Part shown: positions 9,434 to 43,400 of the stretch, piece after piece
How positions within the stretch are numbered: position 1 is the stretch's first letter
Layout of the letters: each line of letters begins with the position of its first letter
Origin: Acinetobacter phage SH-Ab 15497
Sequence record: MG674163.1
Reading direction: 5' to 3' (one strand)
DNA length: 43,420 nt
Notes under the pieces: model-generated
Seen by the model: only the letters and a program-made list of their open reading frames with translations
What the model was told of the DNA's origin: nothing
Database searches by the model: none
Translations under genes and position numbers: made by a program

Positions 9434-10357
9434 ATGTCAGATGGTTCACGCCACAGCATGCATCAGGTATTGGAAACCGTCTACGGCGAAGTACCTGCAA
9501 CACCTGCATTTAAACGAATTCGTCACAACAGCACAACACTGGCTACGGCGATCAACACTTTAACATCAGAAGAGCTTCGACCAGATCGTAACTCTATGGG
9601 CATCAGACACGGGACGCGCCAAGTCGGCGGCGAGATCGTATCCGAGCTTTCATTCGAGTCGCTGGACGACACTCTAGAGGCCTTGATGTGCGGGACTTGG
9701 AACGCCGATGCTTTGGTGAATGGTGTTACCCGTCGTTCGTTCAGCATTTTGCGTCAGTTTAACGATTTAACTAGTGCTTCGTTGCCAAACTTCGTATATG
9801 TCGGGTGTGAATATAACACCATGACTTTATCGATCACAACAGAAGCGATAGTCATGGCGACATTCGGTATCGTAGGTATGAACCAGTTGGAGCCTAGTTC
9901 GACTGTCCCGACTGGCGCTACCTTCGTAGAAGCCCCGACCACAGAGCCGATGGACTCATTCACTGGCCATGTTAAAGAGGGGCTAGCAGACATCGCCGTG
10001 GCAACTGAATTAGAGTTACAAATCGAGAACGGCATCGCTCCGCGTTACGTCATCGGCTCTAAGAAGTCTATCAAACAATCAATTGGGCGATTCAAAGTAT
10101 CAGGTACTTTAACTGCTTATTTTGAAGACGCGACCCTTGTGGGTAAATTCTTGCGTGAAGAAGCATCGTCACTTGAATTCGTAGTGACTGATGGTCTAGC
10201 GGGCAATTCCTACAAGTTCGAACTACCTAAGATCAAATATACTGGTGGTCAACCAGATGTAGGCGGCGAAGGACCGATCACTCTTTCGATGCCGTTTGTA
10301 GCTGAGTATGACCCGACTATCTTAGGCACACTTAAAATCACACGTATCGGAGCATAA
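9434..10357 (+). CDS. Major tail (tube) protein
   Basis: The 307 aa ORF sits immediately upstream of the chaperone pair and the tape measure gene. Confidence 0.6.
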   Translation: MSDGSRHSMHQVLETVYGEVPATPAFKRIRHNSTTLATAINTLTSEELRPDRNSMGIRHGTRQVGGEIVSELSFESLDDTLEALMCGTWNADALVNGVTRRSFSILRQFNDLTSASLPNFVYVGCEYNTMTLSITTEAIVMATFGIVGMNQLEPSSTVPTGATFVEAPTTEPMDSFTGHVKEGLADIAVATELELQIENGIAPRYVIGSKKSIKQSIGRFKVSGTLTAYFEDATLVGKFLREEASSLEFVVTDGLAGNSYKFELPKIKYTGGQPDVGGEGPITLSMPFVAEYDPTILGTLKITRIGA

Positions 10358-10359
10358 CA

Positions 10360-10830
10360 ATGTCAATGGATAAGTTCTTCACACGCGGAAAATCCAACGA
10401 AGGCATCAAACTTCCACTTCCACTGCCTAGCGGCCTACCATCTGGCGACCACCTTGTGATCGTAGGTAAATACTCAGACTTGTATCGTACCAATGAAGCC
10501 GATATGAAGCGACGCGCAGTGGAGATCTGCTCTAAGTACCCCGATGATAAGAAAAAACGCACTCAATTGCTTTTAAGTCTTGAGATCGAATTTCTTGCAT
10601 CATTGGTGCTAGGGTGGTCATTTGAGCAGGAGTTCAACAAAAAGAACATCGAGATGCTCCTACGAGAGGCCCCACAAATCATGGACCTAGTTGATAAGTC
10701 GGTGATGAATAACAGCCTTTTTTTCGGGGAAAGCTCGACGAACTCTTCGAATCCTGCCGAAGAGCCTTCGAGCTTGAAAAAGTCCCAAAAGGATCAAAAA
10801 CCTCAATCAGAAAGCACCTTGAACAAGTAA
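10360..10830 (+). CDS. Tail assembly chaperone, gpG-like
   Basis: The ORF lies between the major tail gene and the tape measure gene and contains a slippery heptamer near its 3' end. Confidence 0.6.
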   Translation: MSMDKFFTRGKSNEGIKLPLPLPSGLPSGDHLVIVGKYSDLYRTNEADMKRRAVEICSKYPDDKKKRTQLLLSLEIEFLASLVLGWSFEQEFNKKNIEMLLREAPQIMDLVDKSVMNNSLFFGESSTNSSNPAEEPSSLKKSQKDQKPQSESTLNK

Positions 10831-20772: not shown

Positions 20773-21137
20773 AGAATACGCCCCGCTTCAACGGGTTTCC
20801 ACGAGGCGGGACGGAAGGAGTACCTCCGCTATATACATAGCAGCCGAGGTTCCGAGGCCAAGGACGGGCCTCTCGTTTTACAAAATGTGCGGTTGCCGAG
20901 TTACTTGTACGCACGCGGGAGTCGGAAACTGTCGCCCGTTGACAATATTCGGAATCGGGAGCAACCGAGCAACCGAGAGAAGAAACATACCGTCTGACGG
21001 GGCCTCTGAATATATCGGGCGGTTGCCTCACTCAGAGAACTCGGAGCAACCGAGCAACCGAGCAACCACTGTAAGAAACACTGTATTCTACAGCCTAGGC
21101 CCTCAAAGAGGTCTTCGATAGACACTCTCTCGGATCC
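20773..21137. repeat. Inverted-repeat module A with tandem GTTGCTCG octamers and small palindromes
   Basis: Its reverse complement aligns by eye with 42966..43290 over about 300 bp. It holds octamer arrays (GAGCAACC x2 at 20957..20975 and x3 at 21044..21068), the palindrome CCGTCTGACGG, and TGTCAACGGGCGACA. Confidence 0.7.
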
Positions 21138-21157
21138 CCACGTGCGTAAAAGAGAGA

Positions 21158-21186
21158 TTGACGGGAAGGGCGTCTAGTGTTTTAAT
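21158..21186 (+). promoter_or_regulatory. Sigma70-like promoter, TTGACG-17-TTTAAT, for the primase-polymerase gene
   Basis: The hexamers TTGACG (21158..21163) and TTTAAT (21181..21186) have exact 17-nt spacing. Confidence 0.45.
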
Positions 21187-21226: not shown

Positions 21227-22816
21227 ATGATAGATACATCAGATATCGAAAGGTTTGCCAAACTGTTTAGGGGCAACCTTCGCACCTTTGGGAAATTCTA
21301 CCCCAATGGTAAAGATTACGGGACACATAGAATCAAGCCGCGGGGGGTGGAGACGATCAAGGCCGCACCGTCGATCAACGATTTTGCGGACCATGTGAAT
21401 GGGGTGGAAGGCATCGGCATAGTTCCGATCATGGACGACGGTTATTGCTGGTTCGGGGCACTGGACCTTGATGCCCATGGTGACGACACGCCCGATCTAG
21501 ATATCGTGGAGATCGAAAGAACGGTCCGCGATCTCGATTTGCCATTGATGGTATGCCGATCAAAGTCGGGTGGTGTGCATCTATACTTGTTCGGGGCCGA
21601 GCCGATCAGAGCCTCCACTATGCGGTCAGTGTTGTCCAAGTGGTCACAGCAGTTAGGCTTCGGCGGGTGTGAAGTGTTCCCCAAACAAGAGAACTTGATC
21701 ACTGACAACGATGGCCAGATGCAGAACGGGAACTGGATCAACCTGTGCAACTTCGACGCTGAAAACGACAATGCCCTCAGATGGTGCGTAGAGGGCGGCA
21801 GGAGAGTGTCTTTCGGATATTTCCTAGACCTTGCCGAGTCACGACGTGTCACGGGCGCAATTCTCGTGGAAAAAGGTGATGACCAGCACGCCGAAGCACC
21901 CCCATGCATCCAAAAGATGATCGCCAACGGCGTGCCGTCTGGGAGTCGGAACGAGGCCCTTTATAATATCACCATCTACCTTAAACAGTCACACCCTGAG
22001 ACATACCGTGACAAGGCATTCGATCTTAACAGCAGAATATTTGATAACCCATTGGCCCACGCCGAAGCCAAGAAGACCATCAATAGTGCTTCACGTCGTG
22101 ATTACCGATACCGATGCAAAGAAGAGCCGTGCCGATCATATTGCAACCCATCGGTGTGCATCACTCGCAAGTTCGGAATCACGCCCGAGGAAAAGGGTGA
22201 AATGGAAATGGGTGCGCCGCCCGAATTCAACTCACTGGAGAAGCATTTAACAAATCCAGTGAGATGGCGCCTATATGTTGATGGCATGGGCATATACCTG
22301 ACCACTCAACAGTTGATGGACTACCGCGCAATTCGTGAGGCCGTGGCTGACGCCTTAACTAGGTTGATCCCACCAATGAAGAACGATCGATGGCAGGCCC
22401 AGTTACATCTGTTGATGAAGGACGCCACGGTAGTAGAAGCACCTGATGAAGCATCGACATCTGGATTGATCAACGCACAACTTGAGGCGTTTATCCGCAA
22501 GGCCGATCTTAAGAGCGATGGAACTAAACTGGAGGATAGACAAGCCCTATTAAATGGCGTCCCAGTGGTTCAAGTGGATCCGTCTGACCCGACACAGCGC
22601 AATGTCTACTTCCGAGGCCAAGACTTCGTGCAGCATCTTAAAAAGGTTAGGTTCGAGGAGCTTAAGGGGGCCAATCTGTGGATGGCAATCCGCGACATGG
22701 GCGTCGGACACGGAGCACTGAAAGTAAACAAGTCGTCGGTCAAGGTATGGTATGTTAGACTGACCGAAGACAACATCATCGATTACACTAAATTAAGCAT
22801 CAAGAGTGAGTTTTAA
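21227..22816 (+). CDS. Archaeo-eukaryotic-type primase-polymerase (AEP PrimPol) with C-terminal primase/helicase-loader-like region
   Basis: The AEP motifs GALDLDAHGDD (DxD) and SKSGGVHLYLF (sGGxH) are present. The ATG at 21227 with a GAGGAAACA RBS is preferred over the track start at 21158, which overlaps the promoter. Confidence 0.75.
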   Translation: MIDTSDIERFAKLFRGNLRTFGKFYPNGKDYGTHRIKPRGVETIKAAPSINDFADHVNGVEGIGIVPIMDDGYCWFGALDLDAHGDDTPDLDIVEIERTVRDLDLPLMVCRSKSGGVHLYLFGAEPIRASTMRSVLSKWSQQLGFGGCEVFPKQENLITDNDGQMQNGNWINLCNFDAENDNALRWCVEGGRRVSFGYFLDLAESRRVTGAILVEKGDDQHAEAPPCIQKMIANGVPSGSRNEALYNITIYLKQSHPETYRDKAFDLNSRIFDNPLAHAEAKKTINSASRRDYRYRCKEEPCRSYCNPSVCITRKFGITPEEKGEMEMGAPPEFNSLEKHLTNPVRWRLYVDGMGIYLTTQQLMDYRAIREAVADALTRLIPPMKNDRWQAQLHLLMKDATVVEAPDEASTSGLINAQLEAFIRKADLKSDGTKLEDRQALLNGVPVVQVDPSDPTQRNVYFRGQDFVQHLKKVRFEELKGANLWMAIRDMGVGHGALKVNKSSVKVWYVRLTEDNIIDYTKLSIKSEF

Positions 22817-25056: not shown

Positions 25057-25133
25057 GCGCTTATAGCTCAGTAGGATAGAGCGATCCCCTCCTAAGGGAT
25101 AGGCCACAAGTTCGATTCTTGTTAAGCGCACCA
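25057..25133 (+). tRNA. tRNA-Arg, anticodon CCU, reads AGG
   Basis: The cloverleaf folds by hand: acceptor GCGCTTA/TAAGCGC, D-arm GCTC..GAGC, anticodon stem ATCCC/GGGAT with loop CTCCTAA, T-arm ACAAG-TTCGATT-CTTGT, discriminator A and an encoded CCA. Confidence 0.85.
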
Positions 25134-25258: not shown

Positions 25259-25278
25259 TTTTCACACGGAGATAAGAG

Positions 25279-25617
25279 ATGCCTACAGTATACGTGGTAC
25301 AAGAAAATCCCCGCATGAACTACCTCCCAGCGGAGAAGTTCGGCGAGGTGAAGTTTTTGACTGCATCGGAGTTCAGTCCGTCGCAGCACAGCTTACGCAA
25401 TAAGCAGATTTTGGAACAGGTCATGGAAAACCTGTCAAATTTTGACCCAGACAAGGATTACCTTGTTCTGAGCGGCAATCCTATCATCATGGGGTTCGTG
25501 TTCAGCCTTCTGATTCAAAAGAAAGGATACCTTCGGGTGCTGTGGTATCACAGTATAGACCGCGAGTATGTGGAAGTAAACTTCAACCCATCGCAAATTT
25601 TGTCGATGAGCAGTTAA
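25279..25617 (+). CDS. Hypothetical protein, 112 aa
   Basis: The start is embedded in GGAGATAAGAGATG (25268..25281). Confidence 0.55.
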   Translation: MPTVYVVQENPRMNYLPAEKFGEVKFLTASEFSPSQHSLRNKQILEQVMENLSNFDPDKDYLVLSGNPIIMGFVFSLLIQKKGYLRVLWYHSIDREYVEVNFNPSQILSMSS

Positions 25618-27961: not shown

Positions 27962-29440
27962 ATGGAAAAAGGTGCACAACGCTACACCATATTCGGACCA
28001 CCTGGCACTGGCAAGAGTACGGAAATAATTAAACGATTTAAGGAATATCTTGATCAGGGATACCATAAGGACCGAATTGGGTTAGTGTCGTTTACAAAGG
28101 CATCGGCCCAAGAATTAGCGGAGCGAATTGGTGTTAAAGCAGGAAAAAACATTAGTACAATCCATTCGATGTGTTATAGAATCTGCGAAGTTATCAGAGA
28201 GCAGGTTATTGGATGGCAGCATTTACGGGAATTCTCAAAAGTCGTTAAGATGGAATTCAGCGGGGCTAATCCTGACGATAGTGAGGAACTCACCGAAGGC
28301 GATGTTTATCTCTCTCTACATGGACTCGCCGTCGCTACCCGTGAGGCGTATCGGGAAGTTTACATGCGGTCAGATCGTGTGGGGTCTATGGCGCAGTTTT
28401 TATGGTTCTGCGAATCTTATGACGACTGGAAACGGGAAAGTGGTTATGTCGATTTCGGAGATATGCTGGTTGATGCACTCCAAAAACCAGCACCAGATTT
28501 CGACGTCCTGTTTGTGGATGAGGCCCAAGACTTATCCCGACTACAGTGGATGGTGATCAATCACTGGTGCCAAGATATCCCGATTGTACATGTGGCGGGC
28601 GACGATGATCAGGCGATTTATGTTTGGGGCGGTGCTGACCCGACGGGGATGTCAACGTGGGAGACGCTTCACAAAGCGGAACGCCAAGTGTTAGGCCAAT
28701 CGTGGCGAATCCCGAAATCGGTGCATGGCTTGGCCCAGTCGGTGATCCATATGGTATCAGAGCGTGTCGAAAAGCCGTACGTGTCTCGCCCCGAAGAGGG
28801 TAAACTGGAGTACATTAATAATGAATGGGCACTCCAAGCTGAGCATGGTGAAGACGTCTTGGTTCTGTACCGTTCCCACTGTTTGCGCGAAGGCATTGAG
28901 GACGTGCTCATCGCTCGCAATATCCCATACACCGTGGACAACGGAAAAGCAGGAATTCTAAACGGTAAACTTGCCAAGGCCATAGCACAGTATTTCAAGC
29001 TAGTTGAAAACATCGACAAAACTGGCATGCCGATGATGACTGACCGTGACTTGCGGATGCTCGCAAAGAACATGAAATACACGTATAAGCTGGCCGTGGA
29101 AAAAGAGGACTGGACAAGATTGGGGGGAGAATGGTATGATGTGCTTCAAGGCGATGAGCATGAATACAATTACCTGAAAGCGGTCTATTCTACTCATGGC
29201 ATGCGGGTGCGCCCTACAATACATTTATCATCAATCCACGGGTCCAAGGGACGGGAGGCAGATCACGTGATTCTGCTGAACGGTGTGACTGAACGGACCA
29301 GTGGGAATATGGCGATGTCACAGGCCAATTATGATGCTGAAATGCGTACGTTCTATGTAGGCGTAACACGTGCCCGCCACAAATTGACAATAGTAGAGGG
29401 ACCTAACCCACTACGTGAAATACGCAACACTTGGAGATAA
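27962..29440 (+). CDS. Superfamily 1 DNA helicase (UvrD/RecD-like)
   Basis: It has Walker A (FGPPGTGKST), motif II (LFVDEAQDL), RIPKSV, and a C-terminal VGVTRARHKLTIV block. Confidence 0.7.
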   Translation: MEKGAQRYTIFGPPGTGKSTEIIKRFKEYLDQGYHKDRIGLVSFTKASAQELAERIGVKAGKNISTIHSMCYRICEVIREQVIGWQHLREFSKVVKMEFSGANPDDSEELTEGDVYLSLHGLAVATREAYREVYMRSDRVGSMAQFLWFCESYDDWKRESGYVDFGDMLVDALQKPAPDFDVLFVDEAQDLSRLQWMVINHWCQDIPIVHVAGDDDQAIYVWGGADPTGMSTWETLHKAERQVLGQSWRIPKSVHGLAQSVIHMVSERVEKPYVSRPEEGKLEYINNEWALQAEHGEDVLVLYRSHCLREGIEDVLIARNIPYTVDNGKAGILNGKLAKAIAQYFKLVENIDKTGMPMMTDRDLRMLAKNMKYTYKLAVEKEDWTRLGGEWYDVLQGDEHEYNYLKAVYSTHGMRVRPTIHLSSIHGSKGREADHVILLNGVTERTSGNMAMSQANYDAEMRTFYVGVTRARHKLTIVEGPNPLREIRNTWR

Positions 29441-29443
29441 GAG

Positions 29444-31318
29444 ATGGCATTCCCGAATATTGAACAGTATCCTCAAATTTCTGTCGACTGCGAGTCCACG
29501 GGTCTTGAGTGGTATAAGGAGGACCGAGCGTTCGGTGTCTCTATTTATCTACCAACTGGCGACGCTGAATACTATGACATCCGAAAGGACCGCAACGCAT
29601 TCCATTGGATGAAGGACAACTTGTGGAAAGCCAAGAAGATCGTCAACCACAACATCAAATTCGATATCCATATGTTGCGGGCGACAGGGATTAACCTTAA
29701 TCCCGCCAATTGTGAATGTACGATGATCAGGGCGGCATTAATTGATGAACACCTCCTCAAGTATGACCTAGATTCACTGCTCAAGAAATACTTAAAGATG
29801 TCAAAGGATAACGACATCTATGCGGATTTAGCACAAATATTCGGAGGCCAACCTACTCGTAAAGTGCAAATCCTGAACCTACACCGTGCACCAGTTGACC
29901 TAGTTGCCCGATATGCCAACATCGATACCGAGGGAGCATATAAACTGTGGGAGTGGCAGGAGGGCGAAATCGAACGCCAAGACCTTCACCAAGTGTGGCA
30001 ACTGGAACGCCGCCTATTCAGGCACATCGTGGAAATGGAACGCCGTGGGATCCGCATCGACCCGAACGAGGCAAACCGCCGTGCGGAGGAACTGGACCGA
30101 GTGACGGCAGAAACTGTGGCCGAATTGAACAGGCTGGCTGGGTTTGAAGTGAACCCGAACCCATCAGGGTCGATCAAGAAATTGTTCAACCCTAAGCAAA
30201 ATGAGGCAGGGATTTGGGTCGCACGTGATGGTACTCCATTACCCAAGACCGATTCGGGCGCACCAAGCCTTGGGGCCAAATCACTGGAATCAATGACTGA
30301 CCCATGCGCCAAGTTGATCTTAAAGGCCCGAAAACTGAACAAGACCAAGGATACCTTTATTCGAGGCCACGTACTGGGACACGCCATTCAAAACGGACAG
30401 GACTGGTTTGTACACCCAAACATCAACCAGACCAAGAGCGACACGGGCGACGGCTCAGAGGGCACGGGAACTGGACGCCTATCATATACCCGACCAGCCC
30501 TGCAGCAGATTCCATCACGTGACAAGGAGATTGCATCAATTGTGCGCCCGATCTTCCTACCTGACCGTGGTCAAAAATGGTCATATGGTGACTTAGACCA
30601 ACATGAATTCCGAATATTTGCCCACTACGCAAACCCGAAGGATATTATCGAAGCCTATGCCCAAAATCCCGATCTAGACATGCATCAAATCGTGGCCGAC
30701 CTAACTGGAATGCCACGGTCAGCAACCAAAGCGGGGGAGGCGAACGCCAAGCAGATCAACTTAGGCATGGTCTTCAACATGGGCGCGGGTGAATTGGCCT
30801 CACAGATGGGACTACCATTCACAATTGAATCGGTGGATTTCGGCGATCATGTGCATGACCTGAAAAAGGCAGGGCCTGAGACACTGGAAATCGTCGAAAA
30901 CTATTATGCCAAGGTGCAGGGGGTGAAGGAAATGGCCCGTAAAGCTAGAACTATCGCCAAATCACGCGGATATGTTAGAACTTTGATGGGACGTCACATC
31001 CGATTCCCGCGTGGGATGTTCACATATAAAGCGTCTGGTTTGATCTTCCAAGGAACCGCTGGCGATCTAAACAAGCTCAATATCTGTAACATTGCGGAGT
31101 ACTTGGAATCTGAGTGCCCATATAACCGTCTATTGTTGAATATCCACGACGAGTATTCAGTATCATTGGAGGATGACGGCAAGGAGATTAAGCACCTGAA
31201 AGAACTTCAAGGATTGGTACAGCATCGCCCAGAGCTTAGAGTGCCTATCCGAATCGATTTTTCACATCCTGCGCCTAACTGGTGGCTAGCCACCCGCGCA
31301 GACCTAGCAACAAAATAA
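29444..31318 (+). CDS. dpoZ: Family A DNA polymerase with 3'-5' exonuclease domain; DpoZ candidate
   Basis: The Exo I motif is ISVDCESTGL. Pol motif A is GDLDQHEFRIFAHYA, motif B is RSATKAGEANAKQINLGMVFNMG, and motif C is LNIHDEYSV. The start is inside GGAGATAAGAGATG and overlaps the helicase TAA stop. Confidence 0.8.
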   Translation: MAFPNIEQYPQISVDCESTGLEWYKEDRAFGVSIYLPTGDAEYYDIRKDRNAFHWMKDNLWKAKKIVNHNIKFDIHMLRATGINLNPANCECTMIRAALIDEHLLKYDLDSLLKKYLKMSKDNDIYADLAQIFGGQPTRKVQILNLHRAPVDLVARYANIDTEGAYKLWEWQEGEIERQDLHQVWQLERRLFRHIVEMERRGIRIDPNEANRRAEELDRVTAETVAELNRLAGFEVNPNPSGSIKKLFNPKQNEAGIWVARDGTPLPKTDSGAPSLGAKSLESMTDPCAKLILKARKLNKTKDTFIRGHVLGHAIQNGQDWFVHPNINQTKSDTGDGSEGTGTGRLSYTRPALQQIPSRDKEIASIVRPIFLPDRGQKWSYGDLDQHEFRIFAHYANPKDIIEAYAQNPDLDMHQIVADLTGMPRSATKAGEANAKQINLGMVFNMGAGELASQMGLPFTIESVDFGDHVHDLKKAGPETLEIVENYYAKVQGVKEMARKARTIAKSRGYVRTLMGRHIRFPRGMFTYKASGLIFQGTAGDLNKLNICNIAEYLESECPYNRLLLNIHDEYSVSLEDDGKEIKHLKELQGLVQHRPELRVPIRIDFSHPAPNWWLATRADLATK

Positions 31319-31321
31319 GTA

Positions 31322-31350
31322 TTGACCCCCAATCCTGCCTGTAGTATAAT
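31322..31350 (+). promoter_or_regulatory. Sigma70-like promoter TTGACC-17-TATAAT with the -10 flanked by CCTGCC/GGCAGG hairpin arms
   Basis: The hexamers are at 31322..31327 and 31345..31350. The spacer contains the cccaatc element shared with the promoters at 35745, 39199 and 42270. Confidence 0.5.
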
Positions 31351-31376
31351 GGGCAGGTCTACTACGGAGATTAGAG

Positions 31377-31676
31377 ATGACACAGCAATATGATAATCGC
31401 AACTCTGGCGCATTGTTTCCAAACGATCGCAAGACTAAGCAATCACACCCAGATTATAAGGGTACAATGACTGACGCAGACGGTCAGGAGTTTTGGATTT
31501 CGGCTTGGGTCAAGCAGGGCAGAAAAGGCGAATTCCTATCATTGGCGTTTGAAAAGAAAGAGGACCGACCTGCTGAGGGACCACGAACCTTGGGCGGCTC
31601 GACCCCTAAGCCATCGGCCCCTAAACAGAACCGCAATCCACCTCCTGCAGACCTTGATGACGACCTTCCATTCTAA
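31377..31676 (+). CDS. Small protein with an SSB-like C-terminal tail (DDDLPF)
   Basis: The 99 aa protein has a Pro/Gly-rich linker (GPRTLGGSTPKPSAPKQNRNPPP) and the terminal DLDDDLPF, which matches the bacterial SSB C-terminal tip motif DDDIPF. The start is inside GGAGATTAGAGATG. Confidence 0.5.
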   Translation: MTQQYDNRNSGALFPNDRKTKQSHPDYKGTMTDADGQEFWISAWVKQGRKGEFLSLAFEKKEDRPAEGPRTLGGSTPKPSAPKQNRNPPPADLDDDLPF

Positions 31677-31688
31677 GAGTAAACAGAC

Positions 31689-32852
31689 ATGAAAAAAGCA
31701 ACAGTAATTTGTGATATGCAATTCGGTTCAACTGGTAAAGGCCTAATCGCTGGCTTCTTGGCTGAACGTGACCAACCAGATGTAGTAGTAACGGCTTGGT
31801 CAGCAAACGCGGGACATACTTACATCAACCGCGAAGGACGCAAGTGGGTGCATTGCATGCTGGCCAACGGCATCGTGTCACCTAAACTTAAGGCAGTATT
31901 GATCGGCGGCGGCTCTCAAATGTCGATCCCTACTTTAATATCTGAGATCATGGGATCATTGGACATTCTCCAAGGTAAATCGATTCTAATTCACGAGAAT
32001 GCATGTATCATTCAGCAACGCCATGTGGAAGAAGAAGCAGGCCCAATGACCAAGATCGGTTCTACTAAGAAGGGCTGTGGTGCGGCAATGATGGAAAAAA
32101 TCCGTCGCAACCCTGAATCTAAAATCGTAGCGAAAGACTTCATCGACGATGGCTTAGAGATCCCAGATTTCAAGCTAGACGGAACAGTTGGATTTAAGGA
32201 CATCTCGCGCCACTTCGAGGAATTAGGTGTCTGCATTAAAGTAGTGAGCAATGAAGTGTATCTGGCCGTACTCCACAAGGCCGAGCGTGTGCAAGTGGAA
32301 GGCGCTCAGGGTTTCAGTCTAGGTCTGCATAATGGATTCTACCCATATGTAACATCGCGTGAATGTACGCCTGCTCAGATTTGTAGCGACTGCAACGTGC
32401 CGATTTCAATGGTCGACAAGGTAGTGGGCACAATGCGCACCTACCCGATACGTGTGGCCAATCGTTTTGACGATGAAGGAAAAATGGTCGGATGGTCAGG
32501 GCCGTGTTACTCGGACCAAACGGAACTTACTTGGGAACAAATGGGTGTCACCCCTGAGAAGACCACCGTGACCAAACTGACCCGCCGTATTTTTAGTTTC
32601 AGCCGCATGCAGACCCGTCAGGCAATGCTGGTATGTATGCCAGATGAAATTTTCTTGAACTTCGCCAACTATTGTGCAAGCGAAGACGAGTTGGCATCGA
32701 TCATCGAAGTGATTTCAAACGAAGGCGGTGACGTATCATACATCGGGTGGGGCGACTCCGCTGCGCACATTGAGACAACGCTCGAAGGCGATTGGTCCGA
32801 CGACACTAATCCGTTGTTCAACCAATACAACAAATCATCAAATATAGCATAA
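31689..32852 (+). CDS. purZ: Adenylosuccinate synthetase homolog; PurZ candidate (2-aminoadenine pathway)
   Basis: The PurA-family blocks are SANAGHTYI (PurA GHNAGHT), GSTKKGCGAA (PurA GTTGRGIGPA) and EGAQGFSLGLHNGFYPYVTSR (PurA [21 protein letters not shown]). The P-loop is GSTGKGL instead of the canonical GDEGKGK. At 387 aa it is shorter than host PurA. Confidence 0.75.
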   Translation: MKKATVICDMQFGSTGKGLIAGFLAERDQPDVVVTAWSANAGHTYINREGRKWVHCMLANGIVSPKLKAVLIGGGSQMSIPTLISEIMGSLDILQGKSILIHENACIIQQRHVEEEAGPMTKIGSTKKGCGAAMMEKIRRNPESKIVAKDFIDDGLEIPDFKLDGTVGFKDISRHFEELGVCIKVVSNEVYLAVLHKAERVQVEGAQGFSLGLHNGFYPYVTSRECTPAQICSDCNVPISMVDKVVGTMRTYPIRVANRFDDEGKMVGWSGPCYSDQTELTWEQMGVTPEKTTVTKLTRRIFSFSRMQTRQAMLVCMPDEIFLNFANYCASEDELASIIEVISNEGGDVSYIGWGDSAAHIETTLEGDWSDDTNPLFNQYNKSSNIA

Positions 32853-32864
32853 GGACTACCGCAC

Positions 32865-34022
32865 ATGTCAGGCAATAAATTCGACCAAGAAAAAGTTGAC
32901 CTACATGTGCTCGACCCTTTCTTTATAGAGGGTACGGCACGTGTGGCACAATTCGGGGAACAAAAATACGGGCGTTCAAATTGGATGCAGGGACTGACCC
33001 AGACACGCATCATAAACGCGATCAAGCGACACATTGCACAAATCGAAAAAGGAGAAGACATCGATGAAGAGTCAGGATTCCACCACGCTTACCACGCAGC
33101 ATGGGGATGCCAAGTACTCGCCTACCAACACCGAAACGGGCAAACCCATCTCGACGATCGCCGTTGGTCAGAAAGTGTTCGAGACGCTGACACTAAAATC
33201 GGGACATGTGAGGGTATTAGCGGACATACCGTGCCGTGCATGTATGAAGGTCCCTTTGGAAGGCTACACCCTGTCGATGGCGAAAAAGATGGACTGGTTA
33301 TGTCCTTCGTGCAATCAGAAGCAGATGAGGGAACGGCGCAAGGCGACCCAATCCAACAACTACAACAAATGATCTCTGAGTGGGCCGATCAAGTATATCC
33401 AGACCGTACAGTTGAAAACGCCCTCACTAAAATGATGCTGCATGAAATCCCTGAATTGTTGCACGGCAAAGCCATGGATCCTGCAGAATTCGCAGACGTA
33501 GCGATCTTATTGTTTGACGTGGCCCACCTCCAAGGAATCGACATAGCACAAGCCATGCGCGAAAAGATGGAAATAAACCAAGCACGCGACTGGAAAATAG
33601 ACCCTGCCACTGGTCTGATGTCACACGTGAAGCCGAAAGGAATGATGGAAACAATACGCGACGCCGTCCAAGGGATAGGTGACGCGGCTAGAATTATGGC
33701 GGCCCCTAGTCGTTTGCTCAATGGCAACAATATGGAACTTGCAGAATATACAGCCGAAACCCTTCCGAAACCGCCCGAAAAACCTTGGGAAATCACTATC
33801 CCAAACTGGGCTTTAAAGACAGAGGAGGGCACGCATATAAAGCTTCGCGCAGGGTCTGGAGTATTTGGACGAGTAAAATATCAGTCTCAATGTATATTAA
33901 TGCACAAGAACATGCGCAAACGCAGCCACCTAGAAACTTATTACTGTGCCACAATCAAAGACACAGTAACAGAAGATGAATACAACGTACCTTGGAGCGA
34001 GATTGAACCATGGACAAACTAA
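32865..34022 (+). CDS. mazZ: Two-domain nucleotide pyrophosphohydrolase, N-terminal dATP/dGTP-PPase-like domain plus MazG-like domain; MazZ candidate
   Basis: The N-terminal domain has [11 protein letters not shown], which is DUF550/dATP_dGTP_PPHyd-like. The central MazG-like helical block is [32 protein letters not shown]...[20 protein letters not shown]. Confidence 0.6.
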
Positions 34023-34621
34023 ACATCCGTGACATCCTTCGGGCACAAGATGTGACCCGTTGGCAAATTGTCCGCACCAAGAAACAATCAGTGGCAGAAC
34101 ACACCTTCGCAGTGCAGGCCGTCTTGATGCGTCTTGTGCCACTCCTTATATCTACGTATACAGCACCTATGAAAGTAGGATTTGAGGAGCGGTTGTTATG
34201 TGAGTGCATAATGGGGGCCTTCTGGCATGATATTCCTGAGGTGATCACTGGAGATATTGCGTCTCCAGTTAAGCGCCTTATACGGGACGGGGGCGACATA
34301 ACCCCGTTGGATGACCTAGAGAAAAAGGTGGATCCAGCGTTCATTAAGTGCTACACGGCGGCCAAGCCTCTGACATTGGCGATCATCAAGTGTGCAGATT
34401 TAATGGAAATGGTGTACCACCTAAACGAATACGGCGACCAACGCGCAAACTCCCACTCATGGAGAGTGCAACATGGCATTAACAACGCATTCCATGAACA
34501 CATACACAATTGCAGCGAGAATTTCCCAGCTTTTAAATGGGATGTCGCCCATGGGTTGCTGATTGAAATGCTGGACCCGTCGCAAGAAACGGATATTGAC
34601 TCTATAGTGAATGGAATATGA
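34010..34621 (+). CDS. datZ: HD-domain phosphohydrolase; DatZ (dATP triphosphohydrolase) candidate
   Basis: The HD motif elements are AEHTF (His) and [13 protein letters not shown] (HD...D). The gene overlaps the mazZ-like stop and the downstream nuclease start. Confidence 0.65.
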
Positions 34622-35713: not shown

Positions 35714-35744
35714 CCGCTCGTCGGGCCTTGTTGACAAAATATAT

Positions 35745-35773
35745 TGACAAGGCCCCCAATCTATGGTATAATA
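35745..35773 (+). promoter_or_regulatory. Strong consensus promoter TTGACA-aggcccccaatctatgg-TATAAT; second TTGACA at 35731 inside a GGGCCTTG/CAAGGCCC hairpin
   Basis: The hexamers are at 35745..35750 and 35768..35773 with 17-nt spacing. The hairpin arms are at 35723..35730 and 35748..35755. A conserved leader ATTTGAAAGGCGGCAGGGGTCGC follows. Confidence 0.6.
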
Positions 35774-35831
35774 AAATTTGAAAGGCGGCAGGGGTCGCTG
35801 AAATGGGAAGGGTCCCAATCGGAGATTAGAG

Positions 35832-36521
35832 ATGAAAAAACTGGCAATCAACCTTGACAACAATAAAGTAATCGAAGTTGTAGAAGTGAATGGTGGGTGG
35901 ACCACTTGCCGCGACATCGATGAAGGGTTTGAATTCAAATTACGCAACGGTAAAATTGGTGAATATGTGGCTCCAGCAGAAGAGCCAAAGCCAGCCAAGA
36001 AAGAAAAACCAAAAGCAAAGAAAATCGAAGGATATATCGAACCTGCAAGCGAATGTCCAAAATGCGGATCTACAGAAGTATACCACGGCGTGATCGGTGC
36101 AGATGGCCATACAGTGGTAAATGAGGAAACTGACTGGGGCTGCCACCACTGTGACTTCGAAATGAAAGCCGCAGATTACAACGAAAACGGCGACAAGCTA
36201 GTTAAAGCCGATCTTGACCATTATGTGAAAGGTGCAGGTACAACAAATTCAGGACGCCCAACGGTAGATATCGATGATGTAGTGGCGAAAGCCCTACGCG
36301 GCGATGACTTGGAGATCATCTACCCTAAGGTGGCAAAATGGTTGAAAGCACTGGGCCGTGAATCAATTGGACGCGGAGCCAAGAAAATGGAAGTTACAGA
36401 AGATAACCTCCGCACTCGCTACGGTAAATTGAACGTGGGGATGCAGCGAATGAATCTAGGGAACGTGCTCCGCGGCGCGATGAATGACCTCGGCGTAACC
36501 GAACTACCCGAAATCGAATAA
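35832..36521 (+). CDS. Zn-ribbon protein, possible early regulator
   Basis: It has CPKC...CHHC cysteine pairs and a Lys-rich linker. It is driven by the strongest-looking promoter, and its start is inside GGAGATTAGAGATG. Codon usage is A/T-ending. Confidence 0.6.
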   Translation: MKKLAINLDNNKVIEVVEVNGGWTTCRDIDEGFEFKLRNGKIGEYVAPAEEPKPAKKEKPKAKKIEGYIEPASECPKCGSTEVYHGVIGADGHTVVNEETDWGCHHCDFEMKAADYNENGDKLVKADLDHYVKGAGTTNSGRPTVDIDDVVAKALRGDDLEIIYPKVAKWLKALGRESIGRGAKKMEVTEDNLRTRYGKLNVGMQRMNLGNVLRGAMNDLGVTELPEIE

Positions 36522-39198: not shown

Positions 39199-39227
39199 TT
39201 GACAAGGCCCCCAATCTATGTTATAAT
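39199..39227 (+). promoter_or_regulatory. Consensus promoter TTGACA-aggcccccaatctatgt-TATAAT with conserved leader
   Basis: It is nearly identical to the 35745 promoter. The leader is AGATTTGAAGGCGGGCAGGGGCCGCGCC, followed by GAGATTAGAGAT. Confidence 0.6.
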
Positions 39228-39276
39228 AAGATTTGAAGGCGGGCAGGGGCCGCGCCAAGAGATTAGAGATATTGAA

Positions 39277-39942
39277 ATGACTGACATGAACCAAATCTAC
39301 GATCGCATCCAAAAATTATTGGCGATGGCAAAAGACGCAAGCTCACCGAACGAGGCGATGATTGCAATGGAACGCGCACGCCGTCTGATGAACAAATATC
39401 AAATTGAAGAGTCAGACATCATTGGGCGTGGGGCAGACGACAGCCGATTCTCGTTCCAATCCCTGCTCAAGAAGAAATACAAGTTCATGCCGACATGGTT
39501 GAACACGCTAGCGGTTGCAGTAGGTGAACTAAACGGCGTACGCGGTGGACTAGTGGAGGGCAACATCGTGGTGGCTGGGTTCAACGAAGATGTGGAATTG
39601 GCTGTGATGATGTATGATCGTCTGGTGGAAGAGTGCAACCGCCTCTGCAGACTGGACCAAATTGCGCGTGGCTACGGCAACAAATACAACGCCAAAATGG
39701 GCGACGCATTCAAGAAAGGATTCTCAGTTGCAGTGCATGCGAAGGTGAAAGAAATCATCGCGCACCAAGCGCAGGAATGTGACTCAACCGCACTAATCCT
39801 GCACAAGGCCGACGCCGTGGCAAAACGATTCGGGGAAACGCAAACCAAAAAATCCAAAATGAACATCGACAACGATGCGAATGATGCCTATCATGAAGGC
39901 AAACGCCACGGCAATAATGCAAAAATTCAAACGGAGATATGA
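39277..39942 (+). CDS. DUF2786-like protein (hypothetical)
   Basis: The N-terminus (IYDRIQKLLAMAKDASSPNEAMIAMERARRLMNKY) resembles the DUF2786 helical motif. The true start is 8 nt after GAGATTAGAGAT, and the track start at 39199 lies inside the promoter. Confidence 0.5.
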   Translation: MTDMNQIYDRIQKLLAMAKDASSPNEAMIAMERARRLMNKYQIEESDIIGRGADDSRFSFQSLLKKKYKFMPTWLNTLAVAVGELNGVRGGLVEGNIVVAGFNEDVELAVMMYDRLVEECNRLCRLDQIARGYGNKYNAKMGDAFKKGFSVAVHAKVKEIIAHQAQECDSTALILHKADAVAKRFGETQTKKSKMNIDNDANDAYHEGKRHGNNAKIQTEI

Positions 39943-39943
39943 G

Positions 39944-40351
39944 ATGACTTTTGACACAAATCCGACCTGTCCATACTGCGATCACGTGGTGGACAGCGAC
40001 CTTGCAGACCTGTGGGAATACGAGGGTGAGGACAACCCGTATGAGTGCCCCAACTGCGAAAAAGAATTGATCCTCAACGTACAAGTGACGACTGAGTATG
40101 AACTTAAGCGCGTAGAATGTGACGATGACAAGCATGAATATGATGAGTGGACCAGAATAGACGTAAGCCAGCGTTTGTTGGACGATTGGGCTAAAGACCC
40201 AGCCATGTCCAGATACGCGGACGAAAAGCCTCATTCGTGGTACATCAGAGAGTGCAAACACTGCGACGACAAAGATTATTCAATCCAGTACGAATACCAA
40301 CAGGAAGTCCCTCAAGATGAAATCAAATCAAGATATGACAAAGATGAATGA
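39944..40351 (+). CDS. Zn-ribbon protein (CPYC..CPNC..CKHC)
   Basis: The start is inside GGAGATATGAGATG and overlaps the upstream TGA stop. The track start at 39875 lies inside the previous gene. Confidence 0.5.
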   Translation: MTFDTNPTCPYCDHVVDSDLADLWEYEGEDNPYECPNCEKELILNVQVTTEYELKRVECDDDKHEYDEWTRIDVSQRLLDDWAKDPAMSRYADEKPHSWYIRECKHCDDKDYSIQYEYQQEVPQDEIKSRYDKDE

Positions 40352-42269: not shown

Positions 42270-42298
42270 TTGACAAGATCCCCAATCTATGATATAAT
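42270..42298 (+). promoter_or_regulatory. Consensus promoter TTGACA-agatccccaatctatga-TATAAT
   Basis: It has the same ccccaatctatg spacer core as the 35745 and 39199 promoters. GAGATCAGAGAT follows at 42309..42320. Confidence 0.55.
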
Positions 42299-42327
42299 AA
42301 AGTCTTAAGAGATCAGAGATAAACAAT

Positions 42328-42941: not shown

Positions 42942-42965
42942 AACACTGCTCCTTTTCCCGTACGC

Positions 42966-43290
42966 GGGAATCCGAGAACCTTTCAAGGATAGACCCCTTC
43001 GAGGGTCTAGGCTGTAGGATACAGTGTTTCTAGTGGTTCGGTTGCTCGGTTGCTTCTGCTGCCAGTGGTGAAGCAACCGCCCGAAGCCCCCGTCCGACGG
43101 GGTTTCTGAGTATATCGGTTGCTCGGTTGCTCGGTTGCTCGGTATTTCTATATTGTCAACGAGCGACACTTTCGGCTCTCCACACGCGCACCAAGGTAAC
43201 TATATACCTAAAGCCCCCGTCGGACGGGACATTTACGGTTGCTTCATATAGAGAAACCACGGGGAAACCGTGGAACTTGATGGGGGATTT
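42966..43290. repeat. Inverted-repeat module B, the reverse-complement partner of 20773..21137, with GTTGCTCG octamer arrays and terminator-like hairpins
   Basis: The octamer arrays are GGTTCGGTTGCTCGGTTGCTTC (43034..43058) and CGGTTGCTCGGTTGCTCGGTTGCTCGG (43117..43143). It also holds TGTCAACGAGCGACA, and the CCCCGTCCGACGGGG hairpin followed by TTTCT at 43088..43110. Confidence 0.7.
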
Positions 43291-43371
43291 GGGGTTTTCT
43301 AAATGTGAAGGCTGGACGCCTTTGAATGAATAGTGTCGAACGACAAAATCAAGTATATCACGCCGTGTTCC

Positions 43372-43400
43372 TTGGCACAAGTACCCTTCTGTGTTATAAT
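43372..43400 (+). promoter_or_regulatory. Sigma70-like promoter TTGGCA-17-TATAAT with an AAGGAG RBS (43407..43412), positioned for the ATG at window position 1
   Basis: The hexamers are at 43372..43377 and 43395..43400. The RBS lies 8 nt before the window end, which implies the sequence is circularly closed and complete. Confidence 0.5.

Follow-up and report, generated by a model that had tools for sequence, protein, structure and literature searches.

Iteron origins situated beside the genes of their initiators, and systems that use two such sites, are well known. The satellite phage P4 has octamer iterons (TGTTCACC) at two separate sites of its genome, ori and crr, to which the alpha protein binds, and crr is reported to work in either orientation. 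The Bacillus phage SPP1 has two distant homologous repeat-containing regions, oriL and oriR, on a siphovirus genome of approximately 44 kb, with one initiator, G38P. A C-terminal winged helix follows the primase and helicase domains in P4 alpha and in pRN1 ORF904 (PMC2777425), and the C-terminal winged-helix domain of Rep from the staphylococcal pathogenicity islands (SaPIs) recognizes short iterons, of which at least two lie on each side of a central region, in opposite directions (PMC9371898). Here, we examined a pair of repeat modules in the genome of Acinetobacter phage SH-Ab 15497 (MG674163.1), the whole 43,420-nt sequence of which is referred to as the window. SH-Ab 15497 is a reference phage for complete diaminopurine substitution. 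Its DNA has served in published work as a natural example of the full replacement of adenine by 2,6-diaminopurine (Z) (PMC13128860). On balance, the two modules appear to be duplicated iteron-type origins of replication, or an origin and a partner site resembling P4 crr, bound by the phage primase; we consider origins the most likely reading because one copy sits before the primase gene in related phages. The element is unannotated and has not been described for diaminopurine phages.

The locus resembles P4 in that octamer iterons occur at two separate sites of one genome and that the candidate initiator is a primase with a C-terminal winged-helix domain (predicted here). However, alpha combines a DnaG/Toprim-type primase with a superfamily 3 helicase, whereas the protein considered here has AEP and PriCT_1 domains and no helicase or ATPase domain, and is thus not a primase–helicase fusion with a C-terminal winged helix of the P4 type. 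The P4 sites are unequal and a few kilobases apart, whereas the window contains a single composite cassette in two full copies separated by about 22 kb, and no sequence relationship between the two systems was found. As in the SaPI ori, short iterons form two sets of opposite orientation around a center, and the SaPI origin also adjoins the pri/rep genes; in contrast, the SaPI center is AT-rich, whereas the center here is a G+C-rich dyad with no AT-rich stretch, Rep is a self-loading helicase, which the present primase is not, and the single SaPI ori lies downstream of rep, whereas one of the two cassettes here lies upstream of the primase gene. SPP1 shares with the window two distant homologous repeat-bearing regions on a genome of similar size, but G38P is a lambda-O-like replisome organizer and not a primase, and the repeats and architecture are unrelated. 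Plasmid and lambdoid iteron origins (RepA/pi/TrfA, lambda O) are similar in having phased direct repeats beside or in the initiator gene, initiators of the winged-helix class and specificity by lineage. Classical iterons are 17–22 bp long and lie beside an AT-rich unwinding element and host DnaA/IHF sites, whereas the present cassette has contiguous units of 8–9 bp, no AT-rich element and three conserved dyads. Its distinctive features are an AEP primase without a helicase domain, the lack of an AT-rich element and duplication as a complete unit.

All long open reading frames (ORFs) of the window are on the + strand, in the order terS, lysis genes, terL, and head and tail genes (1–20772), followed by the genes for primase, helicases, polymerase and nucleotide metabolism and many small genes (21227–42941). 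When the reverse complement of the module A core (20899–21156) was aligned with the module B core (42949–43201) by the Smith–Waterman method, 201 of 276 columns matched (72.8%; 85.5% over ungapped columns), and the longest perfect match was 24 bp. The alignment score was 158, compared with 19.4 ± 2.2 (maximum 30) for Markov-shuffled controls, a maximum of 34 among 156 real segments of the same genome, and 40 for the direct orientation. The same inverted pair was recovered independently by a separate repeat search of the genome. The octamer CGGTTGCT has 12 exact copies in the genome, 11 of them inside the two modules, against 1.28 expected, and none of 100 shuffles reached 12. Both the repeat and the octamer enrichment are therefore far beyond chance, which bears out the diverged inverted repeat pair proposed in an initial annotation of this sequence. 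The limits given there (20773–21137 and 42966–43290) differ from those of the core: 20773–20898 and 43202–43290 lie outside it, and at the other end about 20 nt were missed, the core reaching to 21156 and 42949. The modules are not palindromic as a whole: self-reverse-complement scores of 22–33 did not exceed those of shuffled sequences, and the only features to stand out were short boxes at the termini and, inside B, a single inverted repeat.

Both modules follow one plan (Table 1), namely a TGTC..GACA dyad, two or three tandem octamers, a central CCCGTCnGACGGG dyad, an inverted octamer, a further two or three octamers and a second dyad; module B has the elements of A in reverse order, between 42957 and 43196. 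Each cassette contains six or seven octamers with the consensus CGGTTnCT, arranged as two tandem arrays with oppositely oriented singles around the central dyad. Contiguous arrays of two and three octamers are present in each module, so that the cluster of at least three phased direct repeats typical of iterons is found. The initial annotation had described arrays of two to four octamers; both modules have two and three copies, never four. The partial palindrome that it reported recurs in both modules as dyad 1, whereas its central hairpin is perfect only in B, A having only CCGTCTGACGGGG at this place. The three single octamers that it assigned to the opposite strand exist (starts at 20890, 21020 and 43236), but the octamer at 43236 shares the strand of the B arrays, and the opposite-strand octamer at 43072–43079 was overlooked. 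Its placement of the modules relative to the tail gene, primase promoter, last early gene and terS promoter was correct, as was, for this genome, the statement that the repeats bracket the early/replication module. The number of octamers varies between near-identical phages: module A has 2 + 3 in the window (20960–20975 and 21045–21068) and 3 + 2 in DMU1 and vB_AbaSI_2 (20964–20987 and 21057–21072 in L005), a difference that, judging from the sequences, suggests slippage within the arrays.

Table 1. Coordinates of the two modules, their elements and adjoining or related genes in the window
Feature	Position	Strand	Remarks
Late (tail) operon intrinsic terminator	20854..20872	+	Just upstream of module A, outside the repeat
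Outlying octamer CGGTTGCC	20890..20897	+	Just outside the aligned core; equivalent outlying repeat in L019-L029
Module A core	20899..21156	+	Oriented towards the primase gene; orthologous to the cassette upstream of primase in relatives
Terminal box A CTTGTACGCACGCGGG	20904..20919	.	Inverted relative to CCCACGTGCGTAAAAG at 21137-21152; 14/16 positions match
Dyad 1 of A TGTCGCCCGTTGACA	20930..20944	.	TGTC-N-GACA dyad here in most module-bearing lineages
Short A+T spacer ATATTCGGAATCGGG	20945-20959		Module A
Array A1	20960..20975	-	2 tandem octamers CGGTTGCT
Central dyad of A CCGTCTGACGGGG	20990..21002	.	CCG(T)nGGACG motif kept at the cassette center across lineages
Single oppositely oriented octamer CGGTTGCC	21020..21027	+	Between central dyad and array A2
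Array A2	21045..21068	-	3 tandem octamers, the last being TGGTTGCT
Small dyad of A CTGTATTCTACAG	21081-21093		Followed by CCTAGG; both precede dyad 2
Dyad 2 of A GTCTTCGATAGAC	21111..21123	.	
Inverted terminal box CCCACGTGCGTAAAAG	21137-21152		Module A
Putative primase promoter	21158..21186	+	TTGACG, 17 nt, TTTAAT; by sequence inspection; below consensus-scan threshold
AEP primase, 529 aa	21227..22816	+	ATG at 21227; AEP + PriCT_1 domains, then ~210 aa of predicted winged-helix domains
DpoZ, family-A polymerase with exonuclease	29444-31318	+	Pfam
PurZ-type adenylosuccinate synthetase	31689-32852	+	Pfam
dATP/dGTP pyrophosphohydrolase	32865-34022	+	Pfam
HD hydrolase	34010-34621	+	Pfam
Module B core	42949..43201	-	Full second copy, inverted; between last early gene (stop codon 42939-42941) and terS promoter
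Dyad 2 of B AGACCCCTTCGAGGGTCT	42991..43008	.	Followed by CTGTAGGATACAG at 43012-43024
Array B2	43039..43054	+	2 tandem octamers CGGTTGCT
Single oppositely oriented octamer of B	43072..43079	-	AGCAACCG on + strand
Central dyad of B CCCCGTCCGACGGGG	43088..43102	.	Perfect; followed by TTTCTGAGTATAT
Array B1	43116..43139	+	3 tandem octamers CGGTTGCT
Dyad 1 of B TGTCAACGAGCGACA	43154..43168	.	
Extra partial unit beside B	43202..43246	.	Hairpin CCCGTCGGACGGG + octamer at 43236-43243; inverted relative to 43069-43115
terS promoter	43372-43400	+	170 nt past the module B repeat

The phage collection contains nine related Acinetobacter phages, with 69–94% nucleotide identity around module A; the farther syntenic relatives are PMBT28, VLCpiS6a, K21lambda1 and Kokobel2 (hosts Salmonella, Klebsiella and Providencia), plus PSA28. 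The sequence records were opened at terS by convention (PMC12352091). In the seven Acinetobacter relatives whose DNA was compared, both modules are present at the same places and inverted, with only a faint A-to-B similarity in Barton and JeffCo, so that the absence of octamer arrays from related phages, which the initial annotation had named as a refuting result, was not observed; for the other two, vB_MZM_2AB-P and pB23, both regions were matched by BLAST only. All 12 related isolate genomes compared have the cassette immediately before the primase gene. A search with the primase yielded 33 viral-contig loci, and among the 13 metagenomic loci with a primase at least 40% identical, 11 have the cassette upstream of it, the two without it in place being L025 (partial gene duplication) and L027 (inserted ORFs). 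In L025, a truncated duplicate of the primase N-terminus (10100–10680) lies directly upstream of the full-length gene, which could be an assembly artefact or a real duplication. In the 300 nt upstream of the primase gene, the elements occur in the order dyad, three tandem 8–9-bp repeats, CCG(T)nGGACG center, two inverted repeats, one direct repeat, second dyad and promoter, and the repeat-orientation string -+++--(+) was found in 5 of the 10 metagenomic loci scored (L019, L020, L021, L022 and L029). In L022 and L030, the cassette precedes the primase gene even though its upstream neighbors are encoded on the opposite strand; it is therefore tied to the primase and not to the tail genes, and the position next to a candidate initiator gene, as expected of iterons, is kept even in loci with different upstream neighbors. 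Almost all cassette-bearing loci that are long enough carry a syntenic block of primase, SNF2, gp34-like, UvrD, DpoZ, PurZ and MazZ genes, whereas primases that are at most 34% identical have no PurZ gene nearby and a coding gene, instead of the cassette, directly upstream. Pattern scans of viral contigs for the cassette itself used patterns that were too unspecific, and the matches among those listed were unrelated.

The Acinetobacter relatives differ in their octamer, but the two modules of any one phage share it. The repeat is CGGTTGCT in the window, DMU1 and vB_AbaSI_2, CGGTT(A/C)C(T/C) in Bhz9 and Bhz20, CGGTT(T/A)CT in phage 53, and GGTAGCGG / GGTAACAA / CGCAAACA, phased at 8 bp, in Barton and JeffCo. 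The same architecture precedes the primase gene in PMBT28, PSA28, Kokobel2 and the metagenomic L019, with TGGAACG (PMBT28 and PSA28) or TGGAACC (Kokobel2) repeats; L020 has CCTACTAC, and the repeat types of the metagenomic loci include CCTACTACG, CTACTACAA, CTACA, CTATCAC, CGGTAACA, TGTTCCA, TGTTCGC and CTGCAACA. In dyad 1, TGTC/GACA is kept while the inner arms change complementarily (TGTCGCC/GGCGACA, TGTCCA/TGGACA, TTGTCT/AGACAA and ATTGTC/GACAAT). Such a repeat, which changes from lineage to lineage but is shared by the two copies of any one genome, would be expected if a phage protein co-evolved with its sites.

Each of the complete genomes checked contains two modules and no more. A generic module detector (TGTC-N3-9-GACA followed by three tandem 8–9-mers) found only the two modules, with no false matches, in DMU1 (+20934 and -43242), PMBT28 (+20859 and +43616) and PSA28 (+8277 and +31224), and also the second module of the L019 contig (L297, + strand). 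The second copy of Kokobel2 is direct, and a scan with a specific pattern located a complete inverted second copy in the L020 contig, where it follows a series of small + strand ORFs. Thus, an inverted second copy characterizes the Acinetobacter and L020 lineages, and a direct one the enterobacterial lineage of PMBT28, PSA28, Kokobel2 and L019. Since the orientation of the second copy depends on the lineage, the function appears to tolerate either one. The second copy adjoins terS only in the Acinetobacter lineage; in PMBT28, PSA28, Kokobel2 and L019/L297, 2–4.6 kb separate it from the terminase genes downstream, it is located within the early region before a strong promoter, and the terS-proximal gap has no repeats. 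The copies are about 22 kb apart in the window, and in the three isolate genomes for which the spacing was worked out (the window, PMBT28 and Kokobel2), they are roughly opposite each other on the circular map.

The primase is the candidate for the protein that binds these sites. Its AEP and PriCT_1 domains lie within the first 300 residues. Residues 320–529, modelled with 57 homologues, gave a predicted local distance difference test (pLDDT) score of 91.8 and end in a helix-helix-beta-hairpin arrangement, which is the winged-helix pattern. The best structural match of the C-terminus, although weak, was the iteron-binding initiator SaPIbov1 Rep with two methods. Phages with a common repeat type have identical primase wing strands, and the window and the Bhz phages differ there at three to four positions, a pattern that would fit a role in binding but tracks phylogeny equally. 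No other sequence-specific DNA-binding protein was found with Pfam, PHROGs and NCBIfam among 26 early-region and terS products. The conserved gp34-like protein was considered as an alternative initiator and rejected; its model is an OB-fold, closest to phiC31 gp3, and not a reader of duplex DNA.

The main alternative, which we regard as unlikely, is that the modules are operator arrays of an unrecognized repressor, activator or insulator controlling the operon boundaries (late/replication at A and early/late at B), with the primase perhaps acting as an autoregulator. Tandem contiguous repeats of 7–8 bp are typical of the sites of ribbon-helix-helix regulators such as MetJ and omega, the modules occupy the only large intergenic gaps at operon boundaries, upstream of the promoters at 21158–21186 and 43372–43400, and the second module of PMBT28 and PSA28, with its extra repeats, reaches to about 25 nt from a near-consensus promoter, these repeats coming close to the -35 element in PMBT28. 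On the other hand, the distance and orientation to the downstream promoter vary (about 90 bp at A, and about 200 bp with an inverted module at B), no helix-turn-helix or ribbon-helix-helix protein was detected among the early proteins, the strict linkage is to the primase gene and not to any regulator gene, and a two-sided architecture with three dyads exceeds the usual needs of an operator. The transcription boundary elements suggested in the initial annotation may describe a secondary property, but position and orientation relative to the promoters are not conserved. It is improbable that the arrays are TerS sites (pac or cosB-like) with B as the functional one. Module B is immediately upstream of terS in the Acinetobacter phages, TerS too diverges between lineages, and the pac sites of P1 and SPP1 are known to contain short repeated boxes; however, the distance of the second module from the terminase genes and the repeat-free terS-proximal gap in PMBT28, PSA28, Kokobel2 and L019/L297 weaken this proposal of the initial annotation, because adjacency to terS is confined to the Acinetobacter lineage and the position expected of a pac site is not kept. 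The invariant position is beside the primase gene, and a complete copy in the opposite orientation at mid-genome would send packaging the wrong way and be harmful. A search for TerL recovered only 1 of the 13 primase contigs (L297), which is a weak hint of different terminases, as the retrieval hangs on two peptide patterns.

A still smaller probability attaches to the view that the modules act as RNA or single-stranded elements, that is, as structured RNAs, terminators or complementary read-through RNAs from the late (A) and early (B) operons. Several small hairpins, modest folding z-scores (-1.9 for B and -2.8 for A), a TTTCT 3' of the central dyad of B and the complementary changes at the inner positions of dyad 1 between lineages would agree with this. 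Nevertheless, an Rfam search gave no match in the modules, only the tRNA-Arg gene at 25057–25130 reaching the gathering score; the late operon already terminates before A, at 20854–20872; the transcribed strand would differ between lineages, because the orientation of the second copy flips; and a tandem repeat in which a single position is free to vary (CGGTTnCT) points to duplex DNA being read by a protein. Least probable of all is a role as recombination substrates or cassette boundaries, whether for inversion of the 22-kb early segment or as the ends of a mobile cassette resembling a miniature inverted-repeat transposable element (MITE) or transposon. In this genome, the replication and early block is entirely enclosed by the inverted pair, 16-nt boxes in inverted orientation terminate module A, and the PurZ cassette is found in different phage backbones. 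Against this, the enterobacterial lineage has the copies in direct orientation, none of the nine Acinetobacter relatives departs from collinearity or shows an inversion isomer, protein-family searches of the gene products found no recombinase or transposase, and the perfect A/B match is 24 bp at most. The inversion of the 22-kb segment put forward in the initial annotation is consequently not supported. A triple-octamer search of one representative genome for each of 185,579 bacterial and archaeal species found no extra copies and no Acinetobacter match, a plasmid collection gave no relevant match to the module B core, and the module B region had no matches in the phage collection beyond the nine relatives. 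The genome and plasmid searches thus gave no indication that the element exists in a prophage, plasmid or MITE form. A MITE or insertion-sequence remnant was also rejected as a candidate, as no dispersed copies were found, the boxes at the module ends are short and self-complementarity does not exceed that of shuffles.

Among the four roles proposed in the initial annotation, the iteron-type origin fits best, given the primase linkage, the lineage-specific repeats and the predicted winged-helix domains, although the AT-rich element of such origins is missing. The modules would then be two copies of a cis-acting origin cassette belonging to the diaminopurine (PurZ/DpoZ) replication gene block. 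The AEP primase would bind the iterons via its C-terminal winged-helix domains and oligomerize on the arrays, the bound primase would distort or extrude the dyads, and it would prime DNA synthesis for DpoZ, aided by the adjacent SNF2- and UvrD-type motors. Module A, beside the primase gene, would be the ancestral origin, and module B may be a second firing origin or an orientation-independent auxiliary site, with P4 crr and SPP1 oriR as models. The repeat and its anatomy, the linkage to the primase gene, the lineage-specific octamers, the presence of two copies per genome and the predicted fold of the primase C-terminus are established here, whereas we infer both the start of replication at the modules and the identity of the binding protein. 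Several observations weigh against these inferences. The modules have no AT-rich unwinding element: they are 46–47% A+T, compared with 52% for the genome, their richest 30-nt window reaches 63–67% A+T, a value attained by 8–14% of genomic windows, and the richest windows of 30–40 nt are unexceptional. The GC skew shows a monotonic increase and does not inflect at module A or B; the increase reflects the location of all genes on one strand, so that GC/AT skew carries no origin signal. A domain search found no helicase or ATPase domain in the primase, in contrast to P4 alpha and SaPI Rep. The covariation of repeats and wing strands is confounded, since every early protein also differs between the repeat-type groups, and the comparison therefore does not identify the binder. 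The arrays could also be operators bound by an unrecognized small regulator. In the literature, our search found no paper on the replication origin of PurZ phages, and neither physical termini nor these repeats were found reported in publications on the related phages.

Some further features lie within or beside the modules. A G-rich repeat, GATGGGGGATTTGGGGTTTTC, occurs at 43279–43299, between module B and the terS promoter; it is kept in relatives and expanded in Barton and JeffCo (GGGGATTTGGGGATTTGGGGGGG), and might represent the actual packaging signal. On the minus strand only, a hairpin that resembles a terminator and carries a T-run lies at 43257–43273, although no minus-strand gene is nearby. 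In GenBank records of the relatives, small ORFs are annotated inside the modules (Bhz20 CDS0025-27 and 0067-68, Bhz9 CDS0026 and 0066, and Barton gene 62; L009 769–1108 and 23057–23334, L010 795–1013 and 23292–23504, and L004 42853–43014); these are probably spurious and not genes. GAGATAAGAGATACAG precedes the primase gene, and a similar sequence is found in PMBT28.

In the remainder of the early region, the PurZ, MazZ, DatZ and DpoZ genes together span 29444–34621. The tRNA-Arg gene mentioned above, which is the genome's sole Rfam match, is flanked by the genes for the SNF2 helicase and a gp32-like protein. A 55-nt cassette occurs in three copies (35744–35798, 39199–39253 and 42270–42324), each ahead of an early gene block; within it, a promoter close to consensus (TTGACA, 17 nt, TATAAT) is followed by a conserved stretch, and the same promoter type is also found 3' of the second module in PMBT28 and PSA28. 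The translation-start context GGAGATAAGAGATG recurs before several early genes (25263–25281, 29428–29446, 35816–35834 and 39928–39946). The product of 35832–36521 was considered as an integrase and rejected; its 229 aa include a zinc ribbon (CxxC...CxxC), and comparison with Pfam, NCBIfam and PDB sequences gave no recombinase match. Its homologues in Bhz9 and Bhz20 are labelled “integrase,” and a published announcement infers a temperate lifestyle from this label.

A more speculative and rather doubtful extension concerns the chemistry of the DNA itself. If Z-DNA cannot provide easily melting AT-rich elements, opening might proceed by extrusion or distortion of the three conserved dyads by an iteron-bound, helicase-less AEP primase serving as the sequence-specific initiator, the cassette being duplicated at opposite poles of the circular replicative form, with both copies firing or pairing by looping; together with the primase, SNF2, UvrD, DpoZ and PurZ genes, it might form a portable and self-contained “Z-replicon.” The making and polymerization of Z have been well studied, whereas the start of Z-DNA replication has not been described, as far as our literature search shows. 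The conserved cis-element of approximately 255 bp is tied to the primase gene and has a concrete candidate binder, and the initiation of Z-DNA replication thereby becomes directly testable. If the modules are indeed origins, the cassette would be the piece needed for plasmids or engineered phages that replicate as Z-DNA.

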